Of a stretch of 64,000 nt of DNA, positions 8,997-20,690 are shown piece after piece. Position 1 is the stretch's first letter. Every line of letters starts with the position of its first letter. Both the position numbers and the translations under genes were made by a program. The stretch is from Escherichia coli (lineage in GTDB: Bacteria > Pseudomonadota > Gammaproteobacteria > Enterobacterales > Enterobacteriaceae), in assembly GCF_003334765.1 (NCBI RefSeq), contig NZ_QOWT01000002.1, one strand, 5' to 3'. The notes under the pieces were generated by a model. It saw only the letters and a program-made list of their open reading frames with translations. It was not told where the DNA came from and did not search any database.

Positions 8997-10046
8997 ATGA
9001 CGAATATCACCTTACAGAAACAACATCGTACACTGTGGCATTTTATTCCGGGGTTAGCCCTGAGTGCAGTTATCACCGGGGTCGCCCTGTGGGGTGGTTC
9101 CATTCCCGCGGTTGCGGGTGCCGGGTTTAGTGCCCTCACCCTCGCAATCTTGTTGGGGATGGTTTTAGGCAACACCATCTATCCGCACATCTGGAAAAGC
9201 TGTGACGGTGGTGTGCTGTTTGCCAAGCAATATTTATTACGTCTGGGTATCATTCTTTATGGCTTCCGTCTGACGTTCTCGCAAATTGCCGATGTCGGTA
9301 TCAGTGGGATCATCATTGACGTGTTGACGCTGTCCAGTACCTTCCTGCTGGCTTGCTTCCTGGGGCAGAAAGTGTTTGGTCTGGATAAGCACACCAGCTG
9401 GTTGATCGGTGCCGGTAGCAGTATCTGTGGTGCTGCCGCGGTACTGGCGACTGAGCCGGTAGTGAAAGCGGAAGCCAGTAAAGTAACCGTGGCTGTTGCA
9501 ACCGTTGTTATCTTCGGGACCGTCGCGATTTTCCTCTACCCGGCGATATATCCGCTGATGTCTCAATGGTTTAGTCCGGAAACTTTCGGTATCTACATTG
9601 GTTCTACTGTGCACGAAGTGGCGCAGGTGGTGGCGGCAGGTCATGCCATCAGCCCGGATGCGGAAAACGCAGCAGTTATTTCCAAAATGCTGCGCGTGAT
9701 GATGCTGGCTCCGTTCCTCATCCTGCTGGCGGCGCGTGTTAAACAGCTGTCTGGGGCGAACAGCGGCGAGAAAAGCAAAATCACTATTCCGTGGTTTGCC
9801 ATCTTGTTCATCGTAGTTGCCATCTTTAACTCGTTCCACCTGTTACCGCAGAGCGTGGTGAACATGCTGGTAACGCTGGATACCTTCCTGCTGGCAATGG
9901 CGATGGCGGCGCTGGGTCTGACCACTCACGTCAGCGCGCTGAAAAAAGCTGGGGCGAAACCTCTGCTGATGGCACTGGTACTGTTTGCCTGGCTGATTGT
10001 TGGTGGTGGTGCGATTAACTATGTGATTCAAAGCGTCATCGCATAA
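8997..10046 (+). CDS. yeiH: Inner membrane protein YeiH (UPF0324), 349 aa; divergent from yeiE
   Basis: ORF track 349 aa, multi-pass membrane profile, good RBS (aaaggagagggttATG). Confidence 0.92.
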
Positions 10047-10060
10047 ACCACTACATCTTG

Positions 10061-10112
10061 CTCCTGTTAACCCGCTATCATTACCGTTTTCCTCCAGCGG
10101 GTTTAACAGGAG
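10061..10112 (+). promoter_or_regulatory. Long hairpin (about 16-bp stem with one bulge) whose 3' arm includes the nfo Shine-Dalgarno AGGAG
   Basis: ctcctgttaacccgct (10061-10076) pairs with agcgggtttaacaggag (10096-10112); nfo ATG at 10120. Confidence 0.5.
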
Positions 10113-10119
10113 TCCTCGC

Positions 10120-10977
10120 ATGAAATACATTGGAGCGCACGTTAGTGCTGCTGGCGGTCTGGCAAATGCCGCAATTCGCGCCGCCGAAATCGACGCAACC
10201 GCGTTTGCCTTGTTCACCAAAAACCAACGTCAGTGGCGTGCCGCACCGCTCACGACGCAAACCATCGATGAATTCAAAGCCGCCTGTGAAAAATATCACT
10301 ACACATCGGCGCAAATTCTTCCCCACGACAGTTATCTGATTAACCTCGGACATCCGGTCACTGAAGCTCTGGAAAAATCGCGCGATGCCTTTATAGATGA
10401 AATGCAGCGTTGCGAACAGCTGGGGCTTTCTTTGCTCAACTTCCACCCTGGCAGCCATCTGATGCAGATTTCAGAAGAGGATTGCCTTGCGCGTATTGCC
10501 GAATCCATCAACATTGCGCTGGATAAAACTCAAGGTGTGACAGCGGTGATAGAAAACACCGCCGGTCAGGGCAGTAACTTAGGGTTTAAATTCGAACATC
10601 TCGCGGCGATTATCGACGGCGTGGAAGATAAATCCCGCGTCGGCGTCTGCATTGATACCTGCCATGCTTTCGCTGCCGGGTATGATTTGCGTACTCCAGC
10701 CGAATGCGAGAAAACATTCGCGGATTTTGCCCGTACTGTCGGCTTTAAGTATCTGCGCGGGATGCACCTTAACGATGCGAAAAGCACCTTTGGCAGCCGC
10801 GTTGACCGCCATCATAGCCTCGGTGAAGGCAATATCGGTCATGATGCGTTCCGCTGGATCATGCAGGACGACCGTTTCGACGGCATTCCGCTGATCCTCG
10901 AAACCATCAACCCGGATATCTGGGCAGAAGAGATCGCCTGGCTGAAAGCGCAACAAACTGAAAAAGCGGTAGCCTGA
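10120..10977 (+). CDS. nfo: Endonuclease IV (AP endonuclease), 285 aa
   Basis: ORF track 285 aa, recognised Nfo sequence. Confidence 0.95.
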
Positions 10978-10979
10978 AG

Positions 10980-12068
10980 ATGAATAACCGGGAAAAGGAG
11001 ATCCTTGCAATTTTACGGCGTAACCCGCTGATTCAGCAGAACGAAATTGCGGACATGCTGCAAATCAGCCGTTCGCGCGTTGCGGCGCATATTATGGATT
11101 TAATGCGCAAAGGCCGGATTAAAGGCAAAGGTTACATTCTCACCGAGCAGGAATACTGCGTAGTGGTGGGGACAATCAATATGGATATTCGCGGGATGGC
11201 GGATATCCGTTACCCGCAATCGGCTTCTCATCCCGGTACAATTCATTGCTCAGCGGGCGGCGTGGGACGCAACATCGCCCACAATCTGGCGCTGTTAGGC
11301 CGTGACGTCCATTTGCTTTCAGTGATTGGCGATGACTTTTATGGCGAAATGCTCCTGGAAGAAACGCGCCGTGCCGGCGTGAATGTCTCCGGCTGCGTTC
11401 GTTTGCATGGTCAAAGCACATCGACGTATCTGGCAATTGCCAATCGAGACGATCAAACCGTGCTGGCGATTAACGATACCCATCTGCTGGAACAGTTGAC
11501 ACCGCAACTACTGAACGGGTCGCGCGATTTACTTCGTCATGCGGGCGTGGTACTGGCTGATTGCAACCTGACAGCCGAGGCGCTGGAATGGGTCTTTACC
11601 CTCGCTGATGAAATCCCGGTGTTTGTCGATACCGTTTCAGAATTCAAAGCGGGCAAAATCAAACACTGGCTGGTGCATATTCACACCCTGAAACCCACTT
11701 TACCGGAGCTGGAAATTTTATGGGGACAGGCGATCACCAGCGATGCTGACCGTAATACCGCAGTGAATGCATTGCATCAGCAAGGTGTTCAGCAACTGTT
11801 TGTTTATTTGCCCGATGAGTCAGTTTATTGCAGCGAAAAGGATGGAGAACAATTTTTGCTGACCGCGCCAGCGCATACGACAGTAGACAGTTTTGGTGCT
11901 GACGATGGTTTTATGGCGGGCCTGGTATATAGCTTTCTTGAAGGATACAGTTTCCGCGACAGCGCCCGTTTTGCGGTAGCCTGCGCGGCAATTTCGCGCG
12001 CCAGCGGCAGCTTAAACAACCCTACCCTGTCTGCCGATAACGCGCTTTCATTAGTGCCAATGGTGTAA
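10980..12068 (+). CDS. yeiI: YeiI, N-terminal HTH domain fused to a PfkB/ribokinase-family sugar kinase, 362 aa; substrate unknown
   Basis: ORF track 362 aa; kinase part aligns by eye with PsuK (GGVGRNIA.NLALLG, HTLKP); 2-nt gap after the nfo stop suggests co-transcription. Confidence 0.9.
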   Translation: MNNREKEILAILRRNPLIQQNEIADMLQISRSRVAAHIMDLMRKGRIKGKGYILTEQEYCVVVGTINMDIRGMADIRYPQSASHPGTIHCSAGGVGRNIAHNLALLGRDVHLLSVIGDDFYGEMLLEETRRAGVNVSGCVRLHGQSTSTYLAIANRDDQTVLAINDTHLLEQLTPQLLNGSRDLLRHAGVVLADCNLTAEALEWVFTLADEIPVFVDTVSEFKAGKIKHWLVHIHTLKPTLPELEILWGQAITSDADRNTAVNALHQQGVQQLFVYLPDESVYCSEKDGEQFLLTAPAHTTVDSFGADDGFMAGLVYSFLEGYSFRDSARFAVACAAISRASGSLNNPTLSADNALSLVPMV

Positions 12069-12074
12069 CAATGT

Positions 12075-12167
12075 TGCCGGATGCGACGCTTAACGCGTCT
12101 TATCCGGCCTACAAATCAGGCAATTTCAGCAAGTAAATGTAGGCCTGATAAGCTTGCGCATCAGGCA
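12075..12167. repeat. REP pair (BIME-like) between convergent yeiI and nupX
   Basis: gccggatgcgacgc...cttatccggcctac and gtaggcctgataagc...gcatcaggc imperfect palindromes, typical REP. Confidence 0.8.
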
Positions 12168-12174
12168 ATGACAC

Positions 12175-13425
12175 TCAAGCTAAACCAATAAAGAACCCGG
12201 CAATGGTCGCACTCATCAAGTTGGAAAGCGTCGCCGCCGCCAGCGCCCGTAAACCAAGCTGGGCGATTTCCGGCGCACGGTGTGGCGCAACCGCAGAAAA
12301 CGCCCCCACCACCACCCCGATAGAACCAAAGTTAGCGAAACCGCACAACGCGAAGGAAATAATCGCCACAGTTTTAGCATCGAGAGTGCCAGCCGTTTGC
12401 AGATAGGGTGAGAAATTGAGATAAGCGACAAATTCATTTATTGCCAGTTTCTGTCCAATCAAACTCCCGGCAAGATTCGCATCACTCCAGTCCACACCCA
12501 TCACCCACGCCAGTGGAGCCAGCAGGTAACCTAAAATGGACTCCAGCGAGGCATGTTCAAAACCAAACCAGCCACCAACGCCGCCGATAATACCGTTAAT
12601 CAACGCAATTATTGCAACAAATGCCATCACCACTGTTGCCACACCTGCGGCGATTTTCAGCCCGGTCATTGCCCCTGTCGCAGCGGCTTCAATAATGCTT
12701 TTTGGCGGTGTTTCGGTGAAAGAGAGGTTATTAAAGGAAACCTGCGAAGATTCCGTTGCCGGGCTTAACAGGCGGGCAAACAAGATCCCGCCAGGGATCG
12801 CCATTAATGATGCCGCCAGCAGATATTCCACAGGCACGCCCAGTGCGGCGTAACCAATCATTGTCGAACCAGCAATCGAGGCCATGCCACTACAAATCGC
12901 TGTAAATAATTCATTGCGATTCAGACGATCGATAAAGGGTTTGACGATTGCCGGAATTTCGTTTTGCCCGAGGAAAATGGTGGTGACCGCGACGAATGAC
13001 TCGATCTTGCTGATATTTAATGCTTTCTGGAAGATACCGCCGAGAATTCGAATTAAAATCCCCATCACACCGATGTAGTAGAGAATACTCACCAGCGCGG
13101 TGACGAAGATAATTGCCGGTAACACCCTGAAACCAAAGATAAATCCTGCACCATCAAATAAGGTATCCATTTTCGGTCCGACCAGAGAACCGAAGATAAA
13201 TGCGCTACCCGCGTCGCTGTACGCCATCACTTTATGCACGCCAAAAGCGACTTTTTCAGCGACCCAACGCCCTGGCGGTAACCAAAGCATAATGCCGCCA
13301 ATCACGACCTGTAACACTAACGCCGCGCCAACGGTACGCAGGCTGATCTTCTTCTTGTTTACTGACAGTAAAAACGCAATCGTCAGCAATACCACCATTC
13401 CCAGAACACTTCTCATGACATCCAT
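12175..13425 (-). CDS. nupX: Concentrative nucleoside transporter (CNT family) NupX/YeiJ, 416 aa
   Basis: ORF track 416 aa; highly similar to the psuT product in this window. Confidence 0.92.
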   Translation of the reverse strand: MDVMRSVLGMVVLLTIAFLLSVNKKKISLRTVGAALVLQVVIGGIMLWLPPGRWVAEKVAFGVHKVMAYSDAGSAFIFGSLVGPKMDTLFDGAGFIFGFRVLPAIIFVTALVSILYYIGVMGILIRILGGIFQKALNISKIESFVAVTTIFLGQNEIPAIVKPFIDRLNRNELFTAICSGMASIAGSTMIGYAALGVPVEYLLAASLMAIPGGILFARLLSPATESSQVSFNNLSFTETPPKSIIEAAATGAMTGLKIAAGVATVVMAFVAIIALINGIIGGVGGWFGFEHASLESILGYLLAPLAWVMGVDWSDANLAGSLIGQKLAINEFVAYLNFSPYLQTAGTLDAKTVAIISFALCGFANFGSIGVVVGAFSAVAPHRAPEIAQLGLRALAAATLSNLMSATIAGFFIGLA

Positions 13426-13524
13426 AGTGATTATCTCTTCATGTCATATTGGGCGACGGCTTTCTGCCCATCAGAAATAGCCAGGCCTGCATCTTGCGAT
13501 ACCGGCCCGGCTTGTTATCAACAC

Positions 13525-14466
13525 TTAATGGGTTTTGATGTAGCCGCGCACGCACTCTTCGACTAATCCCCAGAACCAGTCTGTATCAATAGTGATGCCG
13601 ACTTTGGTATTGGCGGGCTTGCCAAGAACGCCCAGCTCGTCGCAGACGGTACGCCCATAGCAAGGGCCACTGTTGACGTCCACTTCGACGTACATCTCCT
13701 GGGTTTTAATGCCATCAGGGTTAATCAGATAACCGATGCAGGTGGCGTCGTGCACCGGGCCGCCAGCAAGGCCGTAGTTTTCGAACTGCGTTTTGAGAGT
13801 GAAGTTCATGATGTCGCTGAACAGCTCTCCGGCGGGGCCGCCTGCCCTTTCCATCCGAGCAATCACGTCCGGGGTGCAAACGGTCTGGTTGGTGAGATCG
13901 AGGCCCATCATCACTAATGGAACGCCGGAGGTGAACACTACGCGTGCGGCTTCCGGGTCGGCAAAGATGTTGAACTCGGCAGATGGCGTGAAGTTGCCTG
14001 TACCGTAAGCGCCGCCCATTAGCACAATTTCACGGATTTTGGGCAGGATCGCGGGTTGCATACGCATTGCCACCGCGATATTTGAAAGCGGACCAACCGG
14101 CACCAGAGTGATATCGCCATCGCTTGCCATCAGGGTATCAATGATATATTTCACCGCATGAGTGCTTTCTGCCTGGCGGGTCAGCGGCTCGAATACCGGG
14201 CCATCCAGTCCGGTTTCACCGTGAATATTATCGGCAACGATTTGTTGACGCATAATGGGCTGCGGCATCCCCGCATAAACCGGAACATTAATCTCCAGTT
14301 TCTGGCAAACATTCAGGCCATTAATTAATGTTTTATCAAGCGTCTGATTACCCGCTACAATAGTGATGCCTAATAAATCTATTGCCGGATGTTTCGCCGC
14401 CATCATTATAGCAATAGCATCATCATGACCCGGATCACAATCCAGAATAATTTTTCTCTTTTCCAT
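13525..14466 (-). CDS. rihB: Pyrimidine-specific ribonucleoside hydrolase RihB (IU-NH family), 313 aa
   Basis: ORF track 313 aa; N-terminal [12 protein letters not shown] nucleoside hydrolase motif. Confidence 0.94.
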
Positions 14467-14634
14467 TGTTTATTTCCTCTGTTTCCAGTTGCGTTATTTT
14501 TCCTACAGCAAAGAAAATTCGACCGGGCCGATGATTGAATCTTAACAACAGCGTACGTATGCTAAATATGAGAAATCTCATAGCGGATAAACATCGTGAA
14601 AGAAATCCACAATAATGATCTTAAGCAGCAATTG

Positions 14635-15294
14635 ATGAGTGAATCCGCGTTTAAGGATTGCTTTTTAACGGATGTTTCAGCCGATACGCGGCTGTTTCAT
14701 TTTTTAGCGCGTGACTACATTGTGCAGGAAGGGCAACAGCCGTCCTGGCTGTTTTACCTGACGCGAGGCCGCGCCAGGCTTTACGCCACGCTAGCTAATG
14801 GTCGCGTGTCGCTGATCGATTTCTTTGCCGCCCCCTGTTTTATTGGCGAGATTGAGTTAATCGATAAAGACCATGAACCGCGTGCGGTGCAGGCTATTGA
14901 AGAGTGTTGGTGCCTTGCGCTCCCTATGAAACATTACCGTCCGCTGTTATTAAACGACACGCTATTTTTACGAAAACTCTGCGTCACCTTAAGTCATAAA
15001 AATTATCGTAATATTGTTTCTTTAACTCAGAATCAATCATTTCCGTTAGTGAATCGCCTGGCAGCATTTATATTACTCTCGCAGGAAGGTGATCTTTATC
15101 ACGAAAAGCATACGCAAGCGGCAGAGTATTTAGGCGTTTCTTATCGACATCTTTTATATGTTCTCGCGCAGTTCATTCACGACGGTTTATTAATTAAAAG
15201 CAAGAAAGGGTATCTCATTAAAAACAGAAAGCAGTTGTCAGGACTGGCGCTGGAGATGGACCCGGAGAATAAATTCTCCGGGATGATGCAGTAA
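14635..15294 (+). CDS. yeiL: CRP/FNR-family transcriptional regulator YeiL (conventional start [10 protein letters not shown]...); track ORF begins 13 codons upstream at 14596
   Basis: ORF track 232 aa; cNMP-binding-like fold plus C-terminal HTH; start choice between 14596 and 14635 is uncertain. Confidence 0.85.
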
Positions 15295-15316
15295 AAATTA
15301 TTTTCAATAGCGCGAT

Positions 15317-15354
15317 TGCCGGATGCAACGCTTAATACGTTTTATCCGGTCTAC
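15317..15354. repeat. REP element downstream of yeiL and psuT
   Basis: tgccggatgcaacgcttaatacgttttatccggtctac, REP-type imperfect palindrome. Confidence 0.75.
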
Positions 15355-15364
15355 AAATCGAGCA

Positions 15365-16615
15365 TTACGCCAGACCAATAAAGAACCCGGCAATAGTCGC
15401 ACTCATCAGGTTGGAAAGCGTTGCTGCTGCCAGCGCCCGTAAACCAAGCTGGGCGATTTCCGGCGCGCGTTTTGGCGAAATAGCCGAAAATGCGCCAACG
15501 ACAACACCGATAGAACCAAAGTTAGCAAAACCACAAAGCGCAAAGGAGATAATCGCAATGGTTTTCACTTCCAGCGTGCCGCCCGTTTGCAGGTATGGGG
15601 AGAAACTCAGGTAAGCGACGAATTCGTTAATCGCCAGTTTCTGCCCAATCAGGCTACCCGCAAGATTGGCATCACTCCAGTCCACACCCATGATCCACGC
15701 CAGCGGTGCCAGCACATAGCCAAAAATACTTTCCAGAGAGGCATTGGCGAAACCAAACCAGCCGCCAATTCCGCCGATAATGCCGTTGATCAGCGCAATA
15801 ATTGCGACAAACGCCATTACCACCGTCGCCACACCAGCGGCGATTTTTAGCCCGGTCATCGCACCGCTCGCCGCCGCTTCGATAAAGCTTTTTGGCGGCG
15901 TTTCGCTGAACGACAGATTTTCAAATGTGACCTGCGAAGGCTCGGTTGCCGGGCTAAGAATACGTGCAAACAAAATCCCGCCAGGGATCGCCATCAGCGA
16001 TGCCGCTAACAGGTAGTCAATTGGTACGCCCATTCCGGCATAACCAATCATCATCGAACCAGCAATGGACGCCATCCCGCTACAAATTGCGGTAAACAAC
16101 TCGTTGCGATTCATGCGATCGATAAACGGTTTAACGATCGCCGGGATCTCATTTTGCCCGAGGAAAATAGTAGTAACCGCAACAAAAGATTCGATTTTGC
16201 TGATGTTGAGGGCTTTCTGGAAAATGCTGCCAAGGATGCGAATCAGCAGCCCCATCACGCCAATGTAGTACAGCAGACTGATGAGCGCAGTAACGAAAAT
16301 AATCGCCGGAAGTACGCGAAAGGCGAAGATAAAACCCGCACCGTCAAACAGGACATCCATTTTCGGCCCAACCAGCGAACCAAAAATGAAGGCGCTACCG
16401 GCATCACTGTAAGACATCACTTTATGAACGCCTAATGCCGCCTGTTCTACTGCCCATTTTCCCGGTGGGAAGTAGAGCATGATGCCACCAATAGCGATTT
16501 GCAGCAGCAGTGCGGCTCCAACCGTGCGCAAACTGATGCTCTTTTTATTCACTGACAACAGAAATGCTATTGCCAGTAACACCACCATCCCCACAACACT
16601 TCTCATTATATCCAT
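15365..16615 (-). CDS. psuT: Putative pseudouridine transporter (CNT family) PsuT/YeiM, 416 aa
   Basis: ORF track 416 aa; paralog of nupX; last gene of the psuK-psuG-psuT unit. Confidence 0.92.
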   Translation of the reverse strand: MDIMRSVVGMVVLLAIAFLLSVNKKSISLRTVGAALLLQIAIGGIMLYFPPGKWAVEQAALGVHKVMSYSDAGSAFIFGSLVGPKMDVLFDGAGFIFAFRVLPAIIFVTALISLLYYIGVMGLLIRILGSIFQKALNISKIESFVAVTTIFLGQNEIPAIVKPFIDRMNRNELFTAICSGMASIAGSMMIGYAGMGVPIDYLLAASLMAIPGGILFARILSPATEPSQVTFENLSFSETPPKSFIEAAASGAMTGLKIAAGVATVVMAFVAIIALINGIIGGIGGWFGFANASLESIFGYVLAPLAWIMGVDWSDANLAGSLIGQKLAINEFVAYLSFSPYLQTGGTLEVKTIAIISFALCGFANFGSIGVVVGAFSAISPKRAPEIAQLGLRALAAATLSNLMSATIAGFFIGLA

Positions 16616-16708
16616 AATGATTTTCCCTTCATGCCGGTAAATCCGGCGTCAGCGCCAGGTTTTGGTATGCTTGATGAGTACGGGCGACGGCTTTCTGCCC
16701 GTCAGAAA

Positions 16709-17647
16709 TTAACCCGCGAGACGCTGATATTCTTTGGCAATTTCGCTCGCCAGAATGGCGTTGTTGAACACCAGCTGGATGTTGGATTTCAGGCTGTCAC
16801 CGCCGGTCAGTTCAGCAACGCGCGCCAGCAGGAATGGCGTACTTTCTTTACCAATGACTCCCTGAGCTTCAGCTTCAGCTACCGCCTGATCGATCGCCGC
16901 ATTGATAGTGTGTTCCGGCATAGCAAACTGTTCCGGGATCGGGTTCGCTACCACGAGGCCACCGTTCAGACCGCTTTGCCATTTCACCGCCATTGCACGG
17001 GCAATTTCGCTGGCGCTGTCGAGACGAATGCTGACGTCAAACGGGCTGGTGCGGCAGAAAAACGCAGGCAGCGCTTTAGTCTGATAGCCAATTAACGGCA
17101 CACCGAAGGTTTCTAAATACTCAGTGGTTAATCCTAAATCGAGAATAGATTTCGCCCCGGCACAAACAACGGTGACATTAGTATTTGCCAGTTCTTGCAA
17201 ATCGGCAGAAATATCGAAGGTATGTTCCGCCCCGCGATGCACACCACCAATTCCCCCGGTGGCAAATACTTTAATTCCGGCAAGCGCCGCAATAATCATC
17301 GTTGAAGCCACAGTGGTTGCGCCATTTTTTCCGGCGGCAACAACAAAAGGTAAATCGCGACGACTAACTTTGGTCACGTTATGCCCTTCACGACCCAGTA
17401 ATTCAATTTCTTCTTTGCTTAACCCCACTTTCATCACGCCGCCAATAATGGCGATCGTGGCAGGTACAGCGCCCTGTTTACGAATAGTTTCTTCAACTTC
17501 AATTGCGGTCTGGGCATTTTGTGGGAACGGCATCCCGTGAGAAATAATGGTCGATTCCAGCGCCACAACCGGTTTTTTGTTTTTTAAAGCGTCCTGCACT
17601 TCCGGGGAAATTTGTAATAATTCAGGGGAAATTTTTAATTCAGACAT
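16709..17647 (-). CDS. psuG: Pseudouridine-5'-phosphate glycosidase PsuG/YeiN, 312 aa
   Basis: ORF track 312 aa; recognised YeiN/indigoidine-synthase-A-like sequence. Confidence 0.93.
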   Translation of the reverse strand: MSELKISPELLQISPEVQDALKNKKPVVALESTIISHGMPFPQNAQTAIEVEETIRKQGAVPATIAIIGGVMKVGLSKEEIELLGREGHNVTKVSRRDLPFVVAAGKNGATTVASTMIIAALAGIKVFATGGIGGVHRGAEHTFDISADLQELANTNVTVVCAGAKSILDLGLTTEYLETFGVPLIGYQTKALPAFFCRTSPFDVSIRLDSASEIARAMAVKWQSGLNGGLVVANPIPEQFAMPEHTINAAIDQAVAEAEAQGVIGKESTPFLLARVAELTGGDSLKSNIQLVFNNAILASEIAKEYQRLAG

Positions 17648-18576
17648 TCTGCGTTCTCCACTAACGATATAACGTTGGCAATCGATAAATCGGGGTTATT
17701 GGTGTATTCACAGGAGAGCGCCATTGACGAACATCCCTGTGCGAAACGAACAGATTCGGCAAACGGCATTCCGTCTACCCAACACGAAGCAAGTCCCGCC
17801 ATCATGGCATCGCCCGCTCCGGTAACATTAATAACATTGGTTTTGATCGGCGCAGACCAGCCACTTTCACCGCTGATATCGCTGTAATAAACGCCGTCGC
17901 CGCCCATGCTCAATACCAGTCGGTTCAGGCCATGTTGATGGAACCAGGCAGCAACTTTTGCCACATCTTCACGCCCTGACAGCGCAATCCCACTCAGGGT
18001 TTCCGCTTCAAGGCGGTTTGGCTTGAGAGTGTGGATCTGATTTAGACGGTCGCGCACTTTGACACATTTCCATGCCGAAACCGGATCGACAAATACGGGT
18101 ACGTTGGCGGCATTATCCAGAATCCATGCCAGTGCCTCTTCACTGATATTACAGTCCGCGACAATGACCTTTGCCCTCTGAATAAATTCACCGTGCTGTG
18201 CGAGATATTCAGCTGTAATAGCGTTGCTAATATTCATGTCATTTATAGCAACCAGCATTTCACCGGTATTATCGAGTAATGATAAATAACTCGACGTATT
18301 TTCTCCCGGCACAATCAGGCATTTATCGACATAAACGCCAGATTGATTGGTTTGCGTTAGCAGCGATTGACCATAAAAATCACTGCCTACGGCGCTCAGT
18401 AGCCAGGCTTTGTTACCCAGCAACGCCAGGTTTTGTGCAATATTGCGCCCTACTCCACCAGGCGTAAATTTTATTTTACCTGGATTTGAATCCGCATAAT
18501 TTAATGATTCATGTGAATATCCGGCGACATCAATATTCGCCGAACCTATAATTACGACATAATCCTTTTCGCGCAT
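17635..18576 (-). CDS. psuK: Pseudouridine kinase PsuK/YeiC (PfkB family), 313 aa; overlaps the psuG start by 13 nt
   Basis: ORF track 313 aa; GGVGRNIAQNLALLG and TGAGDAMMAG ribokinase motifs. Confidence 0.93.
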   Translation of the reverse strand: MREKDYVVIIGSANIDVAGYSHESLNYADSNPGKIKFTPGGVGRNIAQNLALLGNKAWLLSAVGSDFYGQSLLTQTNQSGVYVDKCLIVPGENTSSYLSLLDNTGEMLVAINDMNISNAITAEYLAQHGEFIQRAKVIVADCNISEEALAWILDNAANVPVFVDPVSAWKCVKVRDRLNQIHTLKPNRLEAETLSGIALSGREDVAKVAAWFHQHGLNRLVLSMGGDGVYYSDISGESGWSAPIKTNVINVTGAGDAMMAGLASCWVDGMPFAESVRFAQGCSSMALSCEYTNNPDLSIANVISLVENAECLN

Positions 18577-18643
18577 AGCACGTCCTCTGGTAAAAAATTA
18601 CCAACCCTGTCAATCCACAAGAATATAGATACTGCAAAGACGG

Positions 18644-18679
18644 TTTAAACATGTGTTCATATTTAAACATGTGCTCATA
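18644..18679. promoter_or_regulatory. Tandem direct repeat of an 18-bp unit (TTTAAACATGTG[T/C]TCATA x2), 68-103 bp upstream of the psuK start codon; candidate operator
   Basis: Two adjacent 18-mers differing at one position, seen directly in the sequence. Confidence 0.4.
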
Positions 18680-18823
18680 GTATGCATGTTTTACGTAAAG
18701 TAAATTACCGCCAGAGAGGCAAAATGGGCAGATTTGAGCAGGCTCACAAAATGCGATTAAATGCCTGAATTACAAAAGCGAGGAATTTGTGACGGGATGC
18801 ACAGAACAGAACAATAAAAAAGG

Positions 18824-18852
18824 GCAGAAAATAATCTGCCCTTGAGGAAATA
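18824..18852 (-). terminator. Rho-independent terminator for the fruBKA operon (hairpin GGGCAGA..TCTGCCC with U-run on the minus strand)
   Basis: aaaaaagggcagaaaataatctgccc on the plus strand is a hairpin followed by a T-run on the minus strand, about 150 bp downstream of the fruA stop. Confidence 0.7.
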
Positions 18853-18998
18853 ACCTGAGTGTTTGATGAACGTTTGAAGTTTCTACTGAAAGATAAAACC
18901 ATTTAAATTCATAAAATTACATTCACAAACCGGTCATTCTCTTTGCGCTCATCAAATGTTACAGGACAGGAAATTTCTGCCCTGTAACACACCTTTTA

Positions 18999-20690
18999 TT
19001 ACGCTGCTTTCGCTACTGCGTCCACTTCCGGACGTTTCAGGAAGGCATAGGCCAAACCCGCCACCAGCGTACCGGCAATAATTGCTACCAGGTAACCCAA
19101 TACCGGCGTAATAGCGCCAGGGATCAGCAGAACAAACAGACCACCGTGCGGTGCCATCAGTTTCGCACCAATCGCCATTGAGATTGCGCCAGTCAGCGCC
19201 CCACCCACGATACAGCACGGCAGCACACGCATCGGATCACGAGCAGCAAACGGAATTGCACCTTCCGAAATGAAGCACAGTCCCAATACCAGAGCGGCTT
19301 TGCCACCTTCCTGCTGCGCTTTGTCGAATTTGCGACGCGCCACCATTGTTGCCAGACCCATTGCCAGCGGTGGCACCATACCTGCCGCCATAATCGCCGC
19401 CATCGGGCCATAGGTTTGAGTACTCAGCAGACCCACACCGAATGCGTACGCTGCTTTGTTTACCGGACCGCCCATGTCAGTACACATCATGCCACCGAGG
19501 ATCGCCCCCAGCAGAACCGCATTCGCAGTCCCCATGGTCTGCAGCCAGTGAGTCAGCCCTTCGAGAATGCCAGCAACTGGTTTACCGATCAGGTAGATCA
19601 TCGCCAGACCGACCACCAGACTGGAAATTAGCGGAATGATCAGGATCGGTTTCAGCGCCTCCATACTCTGTGGCAGTTTCAATTGCGTACTGATTAACTT
19701 CGCAATGTAACCAGCCAGGAAGCCCGCAATAATACCACCAATGAAGCCAGAACCGGTGCTGACCGCCAGCATACCGCCAATCAGACCCGGAGTGAGGCCC
19801 GGACGATCGGCAATGGAAAAGGCAATATAACCTGCCAGTACCGGCACCATCAGCGCAAAGGCTGAACCACCACCAATCTGCATCAGCGCCGCAGCCAACG
19901 TACCCGGCTCTTTAAACGCTTCGATACCAAAAGCAAAAGAAAGCGCGATACACAGACCACCTGCAACGACCATCGGCAGCATGTAAGAAACGCCCGTCAG
20001 CAAGTGACGGTATGCGCCTGCACTCTCTTTCTTACTTTCAGTGGTCGCCGTTTGAGCTTTGCCCGCCGGTTCATACGGCGTTGCTTCAGCAACCGCTTTA
20101 TCCAGTTCCTGCGCGGTTTTCTTCAGCGCCAGACCGGTAGAGGTACGATACATCGGTTTACCAGCAAATTTCGCCAGATCCACTTCGATATCTGCCGCCA
20201 CAATCACCAGATCCGCTGCTGCGACTTCTTCGGGAGTGATTGCATTACCCGCGCCAACAGAACCACGGGTTTCAACTTTCACCCACCAGCCACGTTTTTT
20301 CGCTTCGGTTTCAATGGCTTCAGCCGCCATAAAGGTGTGTGCTACGCCAGTCGGGCAAGCAGTCACCGCAACTACGCGTTTCGGACCGCTGGCGGCAACT
20401 GGTGCTGTCGCAGCGACCGGCGCAGTGTAAGGTTTCGCATGGCCTTTGGCTTCACTCAGGAACAGCTCAGGGTGCGCAACTGCCCGGGAAATATCGCCCA
20501 GCCAGACATTTTTACCGTTCAGCGCGCTGTCGTTCGGGATGGAATCACCGAGAACAATCGCCATTTCAGCGTCGTTCGGATTGTCGATGATTTCCAGTTT
20601 TGCTTTTCGCGCCGCCGCGCCCAGCAGGGTCTTCGCCATATAGGCGCGTGCCTGACCGAGATTAGCGTCAATAATCAGCAGCGTTTTCAT
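18999..20690 (-). CDS. fruA: PTS fructose-specific EIIB'BC component, 563 aa
   Basis: ORF track 563 aa; recognised FruA sequence. Confidence 0.95.
   Translation of the reverse strand: MKTLLIIDANLGQARAYMAKTLLGAAARKAKLEIIDNPNDAEMAIVLGDSIPNDSALNGKNVWLGDISRAVAHPELFLSEAKGHAKPYTAPVAATAPVAASGPKRVVAVTACPTGVAHTFMAAEAIETEAKKRGWWVKVETRGSVGAGNAITPEEVAAADLVIVAADIEVDLAKFAGKPMYRTSTGLALKKTAQELDKAVAEATPYEPAGKAQTATTESKKESAGAYRHLLTGVSYMLPMVVAGGLCIALSFAFGIEAFKEPGTLAAALMQIGGGSAFALMVPVLAGYIAFSIADRPGLTPGLIGGMLAVSTGSGFIGGIIAGFLAGYIAKLISTQLKLPQSMEALKPILIIPLISSLVVGLAMIYLIGKPVAGILEGLTHWLQTMGTANAVLLGAILGGMMCTDMGGPVNKAAYAFGVGLLSTQTYGPMAAIMAAGMVPPLAMGLATMVARRKFDKAQQEGGKAALVLGLCFISEGAIPFAARDPMRVLPCCIVGGALTGAISMAIGAKLMAPHGGLFVLLIPGAITPVLGYLVAIIAGTLVAGLAYAFLKRPEVDAVAKAA

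Follow-up and report, generated by a model that had tools for sequence, protein, structure and literature searches.

YeiI of Escherichia coli as the likely regulatory half of a split pseudouridine kinase-repressor

What is a putative sugar kinase doing with a DNA-binding domain? The question is raised by yeiI, an open reading frame (ORF) at positions 10980 to 12068 on the plus strand of a 64,000-nucleotide stretch of Escherichia coli DNA (contig NZ_QOWT01000002.1; hereafter the window), which encodes 362 amino acids (aa) plus a stop and is annotated in MG1655 as b2160, 'putative sugar kinase'. The answer that we favor, and hold to be reasonably likely from comparative sequence analysis, is that YeiI would be the regulatory half of a former pseudouridine kinase-repressor, now divided into two proteins. 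The parts of this answer differ in strength: regulation of psuKGT by YeiI through an AAACA-N2-TGTTT operator is probable, and for the kinase activity the evidence leans slightly toward loss or strong reduction.

The N-terminus of YeiI is a winged helix-turn-helix (wHTH) domain, as an earlier note made from the letters of the window had proposed; the N-terminal residues quoted there are exactly those encoded, and the domain search did not contradict the assignment. Pfam matches HTH_24 to residues 1-48 (E=2.3e-10), with weaker HTH_11 and MarR_2 matches, and PfkB (PF00294) to residues 58-348 (E=2.5e-67). An AlphaFold2 (AF2) model built from 108 relatives (predicted local distance difference test, pLDDT, 93.8) places three helices (residues 3-14, 20-27, and 31-43) and a beta wing (strands at 47-49 and about 52-53) within residues 3-53, followed by the PfkB fold, and both the sequence match and the helix-helix-helix-wing topology are those of winged-helix families. 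The recognition helix spans approximately residues 31-43 (ISRSRVAAHIMDL), and the linker KGKGYIL is conserved. The isolated wHTH domain has no close solved relative (best E-value 0.04), and the helix-turn-helix (HTH)-PfkB fusion occurs in no solved structure. Over its full length (residues 1-362 of 362), YeiI scores 811 bits against NCBIfam NF007416, the YeiI equivalog named 'sugar kinase' (cutoff 561), while PADLOC returned a weak HTH-level match only (CasR, E=7.5e-5), which does not suggest a role in defense. The two domains are encoded as follows.

10980 to 11144, plus strand: winged helix-turn-helix domain, residues 1-55 (Pfam HTH_24, AF2)
11151 to 12023, plus strand: PfkB (ribokinase-like) domain of PsuK type, residues 58-348 (Pfam PF00294, Foldseek)

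The remainder of the protein aligns with pseudouridine kinase, again in agreement with the earlier note. Residues 55-359 match E. coli PsuK (PUKI; 7vkp) with E=1.8e-66 and 38% identity in HMMER, and Foldseek gives a TM-score of 0.96 to EcPUKI 7vtd within a range of 0.85-0.96 across EcPUKI and ribokinases, so that in overall sequence and fold YeiI belongs to the PfkB family. The di-glycine (GG) motif of that family is present as SAGGVGRNIA (residues 91-100), with G93 and G94 invariant. The residues that contact pseudouridine are known from the crystal structure of EcPUKI, in which S30 is contributed by the partner subunit (PMC9061257). These positions (N14, D16, S30, Y97, N112, N143, and K170 in PsuK numbering) are kept in YeiI as N67, D69, S83, Y150, N165, N196, and K223 and are conserved both in the YeiI clade and among canonical relatives; the hallmark triad Ser30/Asn143/Lys170 and the ribose ligands Asn14 and Asp16 are found in 43-44 of 44 YeiI orthologues. 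Judged by this pocket, YeiI very probably binds pseudouridine. Also kept are D256, K185, E190, and D164.

The site of phosphoryl transfer is altered. Opposite the PsuK sequence GAGDAMMAG, YeiI reads GADDGFMAG in the HMMER alignment (codons GGT GCT GAC GAT), a replacement that the earlier note had picked out and that is fixed and not a chance variant: the residue before the catalytic Asp is Asp in 47 of 47 YeiI orthologues and Gly in 157 of 157 canonical relatives, the latter having been chosen for GxGD and N..E, so that their invariant G255 and N187 follow from selection. The catalytic Asp itself is present. A second motif, NXXE, was missed by the earlier reader; KPNRLE in PsuK has become KPTLPE in YeiI, with the Glu kept. 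When the 47 YeiI-clade and 157 canonical sequences are compared for positions that are at least 80% conserved within each group yet differ between them, only five emerge (PsuK numbering). Position 114, in the base pocket, changes from Met (151 of 157) to Thr (46 of 47); position 187, in the NXXE motif, from Asn (157 of 157) to Thr (45 of 47); position 191, directly after NXXE, from Ala to Leu; position 228, the last Gly of the SMGGDG loop, from Gly (155 of 157) to Ser (40 of 47); and position 255, in the anion hole, from Gly to Asp. The residues T187, L191, S228, and T114 are each the majority residue in the YeiI clade (40-46 of 47), and four of the five substitutions fall within elements for ATP, Mg, or phosphoryl transfer, the SMGGDG loop being assigned to ATP binding by homology to ribokinases. 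In EcPsuK, Asn187 is among the residues around putative Mg2+ density (PMC9247573), and the catalytic base of EcPUKI is D256, where the D256A mutant has a 3280-fold lower kcat (PMC9061257). Against NF007355 (PRK09850), the NCBIfam equivalog for pseudouridine kinase, YeiI scores 255 bits for a cutoff of 540. With two PfkB motifs failing and a score below the curated cutoff, YeiI should not, on these sequence grounds, be filed as a pseudouridine kinase.

11478 to 11480, plus strand: Thr167 codon, for PsuK Met114 lining the base pocket (47 versus 157 comparison)
11697 to 11708, plus strand: TLPE for NXXE (PsuK N187-R-L-E190), the next residue being Leu244 for Ala191 (alignment)
11820 to 11822, plus strand: Ser281 codon, for the last Gly (G228) of the PsuK S-M-G-G-D-G loop (47 versus 157 comparison)
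11895 to 11906, plus strand: GADD for GAGD, with Asp308 for the anion-hole Gly255 and the catalytic-base Asp309 (PsuK D256) kept (alignment)

How these changes are distributed among relatives separates YeiI from a large family of fused kinases. Within an alignment of 92 full-length relatives, all those at or above approximately 64% identity combine GADD with KPT..E (not KPN..E), in the genera Escherichia, Salmonella, Citrobacter, Enterobacter, Leclercia, Pseudocitrobacter, and Phytobacter, and the more distant HTH-PfkB fusions of Yersinia, Serratia, Photorhabdus, Xenorhabdus, Pasteurella, and Shewanella keep GAGD and NxxE. HTH-fused proteins account for 114 of the 142 closest relatives in a library clustered at 50% identity, and motifs other than GxGD occur in about 20 of these 114 versus none of the 28 unfused. 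In a neighbor-joining tree of the kinase domain, the unfused enterobacterial PsuK groups with the Yersinia-type fused PsuK (60% identity), and YeiI forms a long-branched sister clade with 38% identity to PsuK and 48% to the Yersinia protein. The DNA-binding domain has kept its character throughout: S30, R31, V34, A35, and M39 of the HTH are invariant in both clades (12-sequence alignment A1), and the recognition helix has zero clade-specific substitutions between the YeiI clade and the canonical fused relatives. Between two deep E. coli alleles of yeiI (synonymous divergence, dS, 0.91), the ratio of nonsynonymous to synonymous divergence (dN/dS) is 0.10 for the gene, 0.055 for the HTH, and 0.11 for the kinase-like domain; with constraint on both domains, yeiI is not, by this measure, a decaying gene.

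The explanation that best survives beside our own, although we think it unlikely, is that YeiI is bifunctional, being an active kinase for pseudouridine or a close analogue as well as the psuKGT repressor, in which the G255D/N187T pair would have remodeled the Mg2+/phosphate site with compensation and not inactivated it. In favor of this, YeiI still has the catalytic Asp, K185, E190, D164, and the GG motif, the carboxylate gained by G255D beside the metal-water ligand lost by N187T could compensate for it, and the dN/dS of the kinase domain is low, but four independent positions of the ATP/phosphate apparatus have changed together, one of them the Gly that precedes the catalytic Asp in every canonical relative, and a separate canonical PsuK is always encoded alongside YeiI. 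A psuK mutant is moreover reported to be unable to use pseudouridine (cited in PMC12506659); as far as that citation goes, YeiI would therefore be no substitute for PsuK in vivo.

Gene order separates the two kinds of protein along the same line. The psu operon lies on the opposite strand in the window, with psuK 5.6 kb from yeiI, and the PsuK that it encodes has 313 aa, no HTH, and canonical GAGD and NRLE motifs.

15365 to 18576, minus strand: psuK (17635-18576), psuG (16709-17647), and psuT (15365-16615), the predicted regulated operon (ORFs, MG1655 annotation)
10120 to 10977, plus strand: nfo (endonuclease IV), which ends 2 nt before yeiI (ORF, MG1655 annotation)

We scanned the neighborhoods of 78 loci, one genome per species, from Gamma- and Betaproteobacteria, Clostridia, Spirochaetes, and Bacteroidota. 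In Yersinia, Serratia, Xenorhabdus, and Pasteurella, psuG and a gene for a CNT nucleoside transporter come next after the fused canonical gene, in the same orientation, and GxGD is present in 70 of the 70 fused genes directly followed by psuG. The convergent arrangement, in which yeiI faces psuT-psuG-psuK with an unfused PsuK of ~313 aa, goes with GAD(D/E), (T/S)xxE, and S228 in 10 of 10 loci, and three further loci (L087, L093, and L094) have the same arrangement. It also holds in Affinibrenneria, whose motif is GADE; in the metagenomic relative the motif is GIDN. In all 13 of these YeiI-type loci, yeiI is convergent with psuK-psuG-psuT and lies outside the operon. The 2-nt spacing between the nfo stop (ending at 10977) and the yeiI ATG (at 10980), noted earlier and borne out here, is found in Escherichia, Citrobacter, Enterobacter, and Leclercia, and yeiI stands with psuT-psuG-psuK and without nfo in Salmonella, Affinibrenneria, and the metagenomic relative (L087). 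Because these three lineages carry the yeiI-psu cassette without nfo, the link between yeiI and nfo is, by gene content, positional and not functional; the constant partner of yeiI is, on the same grounds, the psu operon, since it lies beside yeiI in all YeiI-type loci and the adjacency to nfo is confined to Escherichia, Citrobacter, Enterobacter, and Leclercia.

In Salmonella enterica, the yeiI/psuT-psuG-psuK cassette (L093 308-7590; L094 533-1805) sits beside transposase genes with no nfo nearby, and one of the two cassettes also adjoins a RelB/ParE toxin-antitoxin pair. Its position away from the nfo-fruA locus suggests a four-gene module that is, in Salmonella, mobile or accessory.

The candidate site of action of YeiI lies before psuK. 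Three groups of upstream regions were each searched separately and exhaustively for 5-mer palindromes with spacers of 0-7 nt, and the same core motif ranked top, or within one region of top, in each. It appeared as CAAAC-N4-GTTTG (equal to AAACA-N2-TGTTT) in 18 of 26 regions before proteobacterial fused genes (best in shuffles, 7), as TAAAC-N4-GTTTA in 22 of 44 regions before fused genes of other phyla (best in shuffles, 10), and as GAACA-N2-TGTTC in 8 of 10 psuK upstream regions of YeiI-bearing enterics (best in shuffles, 4), where a CRP-like TGTGA-N6-TCACA (at most one mismatch; 9 of 10 regions) ranked above it. The predicted operators occur as pairs 18-20 bp apart. A search of 1.34 Mb of fetched loci for paired sites with at most three mismatches in total returned 25, all of which (25 of 25) lie directly upstream of a kinase gene heading a psu operon, in several phyla. 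The window contains exactly one such pair, at 18647-18676 before psuK, compared with zero in 50 shuffles, and a site is found upstream of psuK in every YeiI-clade locus examined, the extra loci included. Specificity resides in the paired-site criterion and not in single sites, as single AAACANNTGTTT sites (at most one mismatch) are not significant in the window, with six found versus 2.9 expected.

18647 to 18676, minus strand: predicted YeiI operator pair, GAGCACATGTTT (18676-18665) and GAACACATGTTT (18658-18647), starts 18 bp apart (comparative evidence)
18677 to 18704, minus strand: inferred psuK promoter, with -35 TTTACT (18704-18699), a 16-nt spacer, and -10 TACTAT (18682-18677) (sequence, conserved layout)
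18733 to 18748, minus strand: CRP-like site TGTGA-N6-TCAAA, ~70 bp upstream of the inferred psuK start (sequence match)

When ten enterobacterial psuK upstream regions are aligned, both operators stand out as conserved islands in otherwise divergent sequence, as do a TTTAC(T) box, a TAnnAT box, and the CRP-like TGTGA, whose core is invariant. The order of elements, namely TTTACT, 16-17 nt, the -10 hexamer, operator 1, 6 nt, and operator 2, is collinear between E. coli psuK and the fused operons of Yersinia, Serratia, and Photorhabdus, and in both settings the operators lie directly downstream of the inferred -10. A promoter scan offers an alternative for psuK (TTTAAA-16-TATATT at 18649-18622), which likewise overlaps the operator. 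An Rfam scan of 9900-19500 found no RNA family and thus no evidence for a riboswitch in the psuK leader.

This promoter has been met in another setting. During adaptation of E. coli to the mouse gut, a recurrent A-to-C single nucleotide polymorphism (SNP) arose in the psuK/fruA intergenic region (position 2257444; five of seven mice) (PMC7518454, PMC9509342). Assuming NC_000913.2 numbering (+1978 relative to.3), the SNP maps to window position 18702 (minus strand), where the inferred -35 element would then read TTGACT and not TTTACT; this would be a promoter-up change, located a short way before the predicted operators.

Elsewhere around yeiI the motif is absent. At up to two mismatches, no operator match occurs upstream of or within nfo, or in the yeiE/yeiH, yeiI/nupX, nupX/rihB, rihB/yeiL, yeiL/psuT, and psuT/psuG intervals, and in four loci where yeiI has its own promoter the sole match upstream of it, at the same threshold, is 405 bp away (L093). 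Autoregulation of yeiI and control of nupX-rihB through AAACA-N2-TGTTT, which we had considered as candidates, are not supported by the scans of those regions. As the operator is absent from the nupX, rihB/yeiL, and nfo regions and nupX-rihB-yeiL is confined to E. coli, the predicted target is the psuK promoter only. The suggestion of the earlier note, a kinase-based regulator that senses a metabolite, therefore fares unevenly: a genuine HTH, a kept pocket, and an operator at psuK speak for its core, as far as sequence can, and nupX-rihB falls away as a target region.

Two further observations concern the operator and its reader. In Aeromonas, the fused proteins (L028, L033, L034, L040, and L041) have a different recognition helix (SRSALASHISSL) and their upstream regions contain no AAACA-N2-TGTTT pair at the thresholds used, which suggests that operator specificity has shifted. 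Co-variation of the recognition helix (…VAGHIM… versus …VAVHIS…) with the operator (AAACA versus AAGCA) is a trend only, and we do not use it as evidence because it tracks phylogeny and is not free of exceptions. For the fused genes of Yersinia and Serratia, the starts as called (MFKNKQVS.M...; L002 8001-8027 and L005 6001-6027) lie nine codons before the conserved MT(S)REKQIL start and are probably mis-called, since the extra codons cover the predicted operator pair.

A second rival, which we regard as improbable, takes YeiI for a kinase of another nucleoside, such as a modified uridine or another C-nucleoside, whose HTH only adjusts its own expression or that of its neighbors. The M114T substitution does alter one wall of the base pocket across orthologues, the NCBIfam equivalog of YeiI is separate from that of pseudouridine kinase, whose cutoff YeiI falls far short of, and in E. 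coli the gene adjoins nupX-rihB, for nucleoside uptake and hydrolysis. Yet the three hallmark residues of pseudouridine recognition are intact, yeiI is not accompanied by a gene for a partner enzyme that would take up a phosphorylated product, its only constant neighbors being psuT-psuG-psuK, nupX-rihB-yeiL is found in E. coli alone, the family operator is missing upstream of yeiI itself, and the altered phosphoryl-transfer motifs speak against efficient catalysis.

That YeiI controls nupX-rihB (and psu) and acts together with a co-transcribed nfo, the version closest to the earlier note, is very improbable. Its attraction is the 2-nt gap to nfo conserved in four genera, together with a simple scan of the nfo-yeiI junction that found no terminator-like site; the sole promoter-like match nearby is a weak 9/12 site inside nfo (10659-10686). 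Co-transcription of the two genes in E. coli is possible on this basis, but the control regions of nfo, nupX, rihB/yeiL, and psuT have no operator at up to two mismatches, the cassette persists without nfo in three lineages, and nupX-rihB-yeiL is an insertion found in E. coli only. Equally remote is the notion that YeiI is a decaying duplicate without a role, with another regulator binding the psuK operator, since its degenerate catalytic motifs, its fast evolution (77-81% identity between genera versus 87-95% for Nfo, PsuT, and PsuG), and its two very divergent alleles within E. coli are set against a 2.2-kb nfo-yeiI query matched by 5,426 of 5,426 complete E. coli genomes (with at least 80% of its length covered in 5,422), a yeiI that is intact in every translated copy, a dN/dS that is low overall and lowest in the HTH, derived residues that are themselves invariant across genera, and a locus in which YeiI is the only protein of this HTH family found.

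The reading of YeiI as the regulatory half of a split kinase-repressor would account for the locus in the following way. The starting point would be a single protein, still found in many bacteria, in which an HTH is joined to a canonical pseudouridine kinase, encoded by the first gene of psuK-psuG(-psuT) behind two operators. After a gene duplication in the Enterobacteriaceae lineage, the PsuK copy would have lost the HTH and stayed an enzyme, while the YeiI copy would have kept the HTH, the dimer-forming small domain, and the pseudouridine pocket including Ser30/Asn143/Lys170, and would have fixed G255D in the anion hole, N187T and A191L at NXXE, and G228S. The operator now stands before an HTH-less PsuK, and thus the ancestral cis-element would still be in place. 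From the domain architecture, the conserved substitutions, the retained pocket, purifying selection, the neighborhood rule, and the location and specificity of the operator, we infer that YeiI binds DNA, represses and does not activate, responds to pseudouridine, and has lost its kinase activity. A YeiI dimer, or two dimers, would bind the operator pair just past the -10 and block psuKGT transcription. In EcPUKI, pseudouridine induces a quaternary change that shortens a marker distance from ~66 Å to ~51 Å (PMC9061257), and in YeiI its binding would trigger a closure of the small domain as in EcPUKI, which, through the short KGKGYIL linker, would shift the relative position of the two HTH domains and release the DNA. 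With phosphoryl transfer crippled by G255D, N187T, G228S, and A191L, YeiI would hold pseudouridine without consuming it. In its widest form, on which our judgment is evenly balanced, the account makes HTH-PsuK proteins an undescribed, widespread family of enzyme-repressors with a paired operator (Proteobacteria, Firmicutes, Spirochaetes, and Bacteroidota), YeiI a pseudokinase offshoot that arose by subfunctionalization to become a pure pseudouridine-sensing repressor of psuKGT, and PsuK the copy that shed its DNA-binding domain.

Several points weigh against this reading. The YeiI clade has a single origin, so that the perfect coupling of motif state to gene order amounts to one evolutionary event and not to 13. 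The neighbor-joining tree is crude, and long-branch effects are possible. Given the retained D256, K185, E190, and D164 and the purifying selection on the kinase-like domain, YeiI may yet have kinase activity, with its metal site rearranged. The promoters of L004, L011, L013, and L014 each have a single good operator copy, and that of L008 has a distant one (-276). The operator consensus was derived from the same loci used to measure its specificity, a circularity that weighs less because the three enumerations were run separately and no matches turned up elsewhere, and another transcription factor could in principle bind the conserved psuK site. In all the literature found, YeiI is 'uncharacterized'.

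Compared with known systems, YeiI is closest to E. coli PsuK/PUKI (7vkp, 7vtd, 7vva), with which it shares the PfkB fold and the residues contacting ribose and uracil, and from which it differs in its N-terminal wHTH, its five substitutions, its sub-cutoff score, and its position outside the psuG operon. HTH-fused canonical pseudouridine kinases, found in Yersinia, Serratia, Photorhabdus, Pasteurella, Shewanella, Vibrio, Aeromonas, Neisseriales, Clostridia, and Spirochaetes, are annotated as 'PfkB family carbohydrate kinase' or 'winged helix-turn-helix transcriptional regulator', and no characterized one was found. They resemble YeiI in two-domain architecture, recognition helix, operator motif, and promoter layout, with 41-57% identity, and unlike YeiI they keep GxGD and NxxE and head the psuG operon (70 of 70); being first in that operon, they are presumably both enzyme and regulator. 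Proteins that join an enzyme domain to a DNA-binding domain, so that occupancy by substrate or product controls the genes of the pathway, include the biotin ligase BirA, NadR, PutA, and the archaeal riboflavin kinase/regulator RbkR, which differ from YeiI in belonging to other folds and families and in retaining enzyme activity. By analogy, YeiI looks like the next step beyond such enzyme-repressors, with a paralogue taking over catalysis and the enzyme domain remaining as a sensor. Inactive sensors derived from enzymes are represented by the ROK repressors NagC and Mlc, as against ROK glucokinases, by the archaeal ThiR with its inactive ThiN domain, and by FLN1 and FLN2 of the plant plastid transcription complex, which have a PfkB fold like YeiI and no HTH fusion. 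In all of these an enzyme fold with degenerate catalytic motifs is reused in transcription, where it serves for ligand binding or as a structural module; their DNA-binding parts are not homologous to that of YeiI, and the inactivity of YeiI is itself putative.

Existing records cover the yeiI gene and its two-domain architecture and list the protein as a 'hypothetical transcription factor'. A machine-learning annotation has called YeiI a second pseudouridine kinase, a call that curators questioned (PMC12506659). Our literature search found no paper on YeiI function (assays included), on an operator, or on HTH-PsuK proteins as regulators, none combining pseudouridine kinase with helix-turn-helix, and nothing useful for b2160. 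The operator, the predicted target, and the evolutionary account thus appear to be new.

The remaining observations concern the surroundings of yeiI and its more distant kin. The nupX-rihB-yeiL genes (12175-15294) lie between yeiI and psuT in E. coli only and are not present in E. albertii, Citrobacter, Enterobacter, Leclercia, or Salmonella; NupX is closely paralogous to PsuT (89% aa identity in the L009 strain of E. coli), and the block therefore has the look of an insertion in which a transporter was duplicated. In one O157:H7 genome nupX is annotated as frameshifted. The yeiI-nupX intergenic region (12070-12170) has palindromes like repetitive extragenic palindromic (REP) elements (GCCGGATGCGACGC...GCGTCTTATCCGGCCTAC, then TGTAGGCCTGATAAGC...GCATCAGGC) and no clear intrinsic terminator.

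The two deeply diverged E. coli alleles of yeiI (window 10980-12068 and L091 8982-10070) differ at 52 of 362 residues, and the genes flanking them (yeiH, nfo, nupX, rihB, yeiL, psuT, psuG, and psuK) have dS values of 0.02-0.17. Over the nfo-yeiI region, DNA identity is 80-90% for approximately 2,047 of the 5,426 genomes, and the non-K-12 allele is closer to E. albertii (93% identity). A recombination breakpoint inside yeiI is suggested because the last ~75 codons of both alleles encode identical residues.

Other HTH-PfkB lineages have independently lost the catalytic motif (GAAS, GTSG, and GAED; L088 180-5473, L089, and L090), and none adjoins psuG. One of these degenerate proteins, P0183, heads an operon with a nucleoside hydrolase and without psuG, which suggests a pure regulator; P0145 and P0189 lie on short or uninformative contigs. 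Such lineages may be further kinase-derived regulators with other ligands. In Xenorhabdus ehlersii (L020 and L025), there are two extra canonical HTH-PfkB paralogues that are not followed by psuG.

Pseudouridine is an industrial product for mRNA manufacture and is made by engineered E. coli strains; if our reading is true, a repressor that responds to pseudouridine could, with its operator, be put to direct use as a biosensor. Mutations arise repeatedly in the psuK promoter as E. coli adapts to the mouse gut (PMC9509342, PMC7518454), and knowledge of the psuK regulator and of the -35 element would help to interpret them. For yeiI, one of the remaining uncharacterized y-genes of E. coli K-12, there is now a specific hypothesis with a 30-bp target site. 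If it holds, a function would be assigned to a long-standing y-gene, and a bifunctional enzyme-regulator would be seen to have resolved into an enzyme and a pseudoenzyme sensor, with the ancestral cis-element in place.

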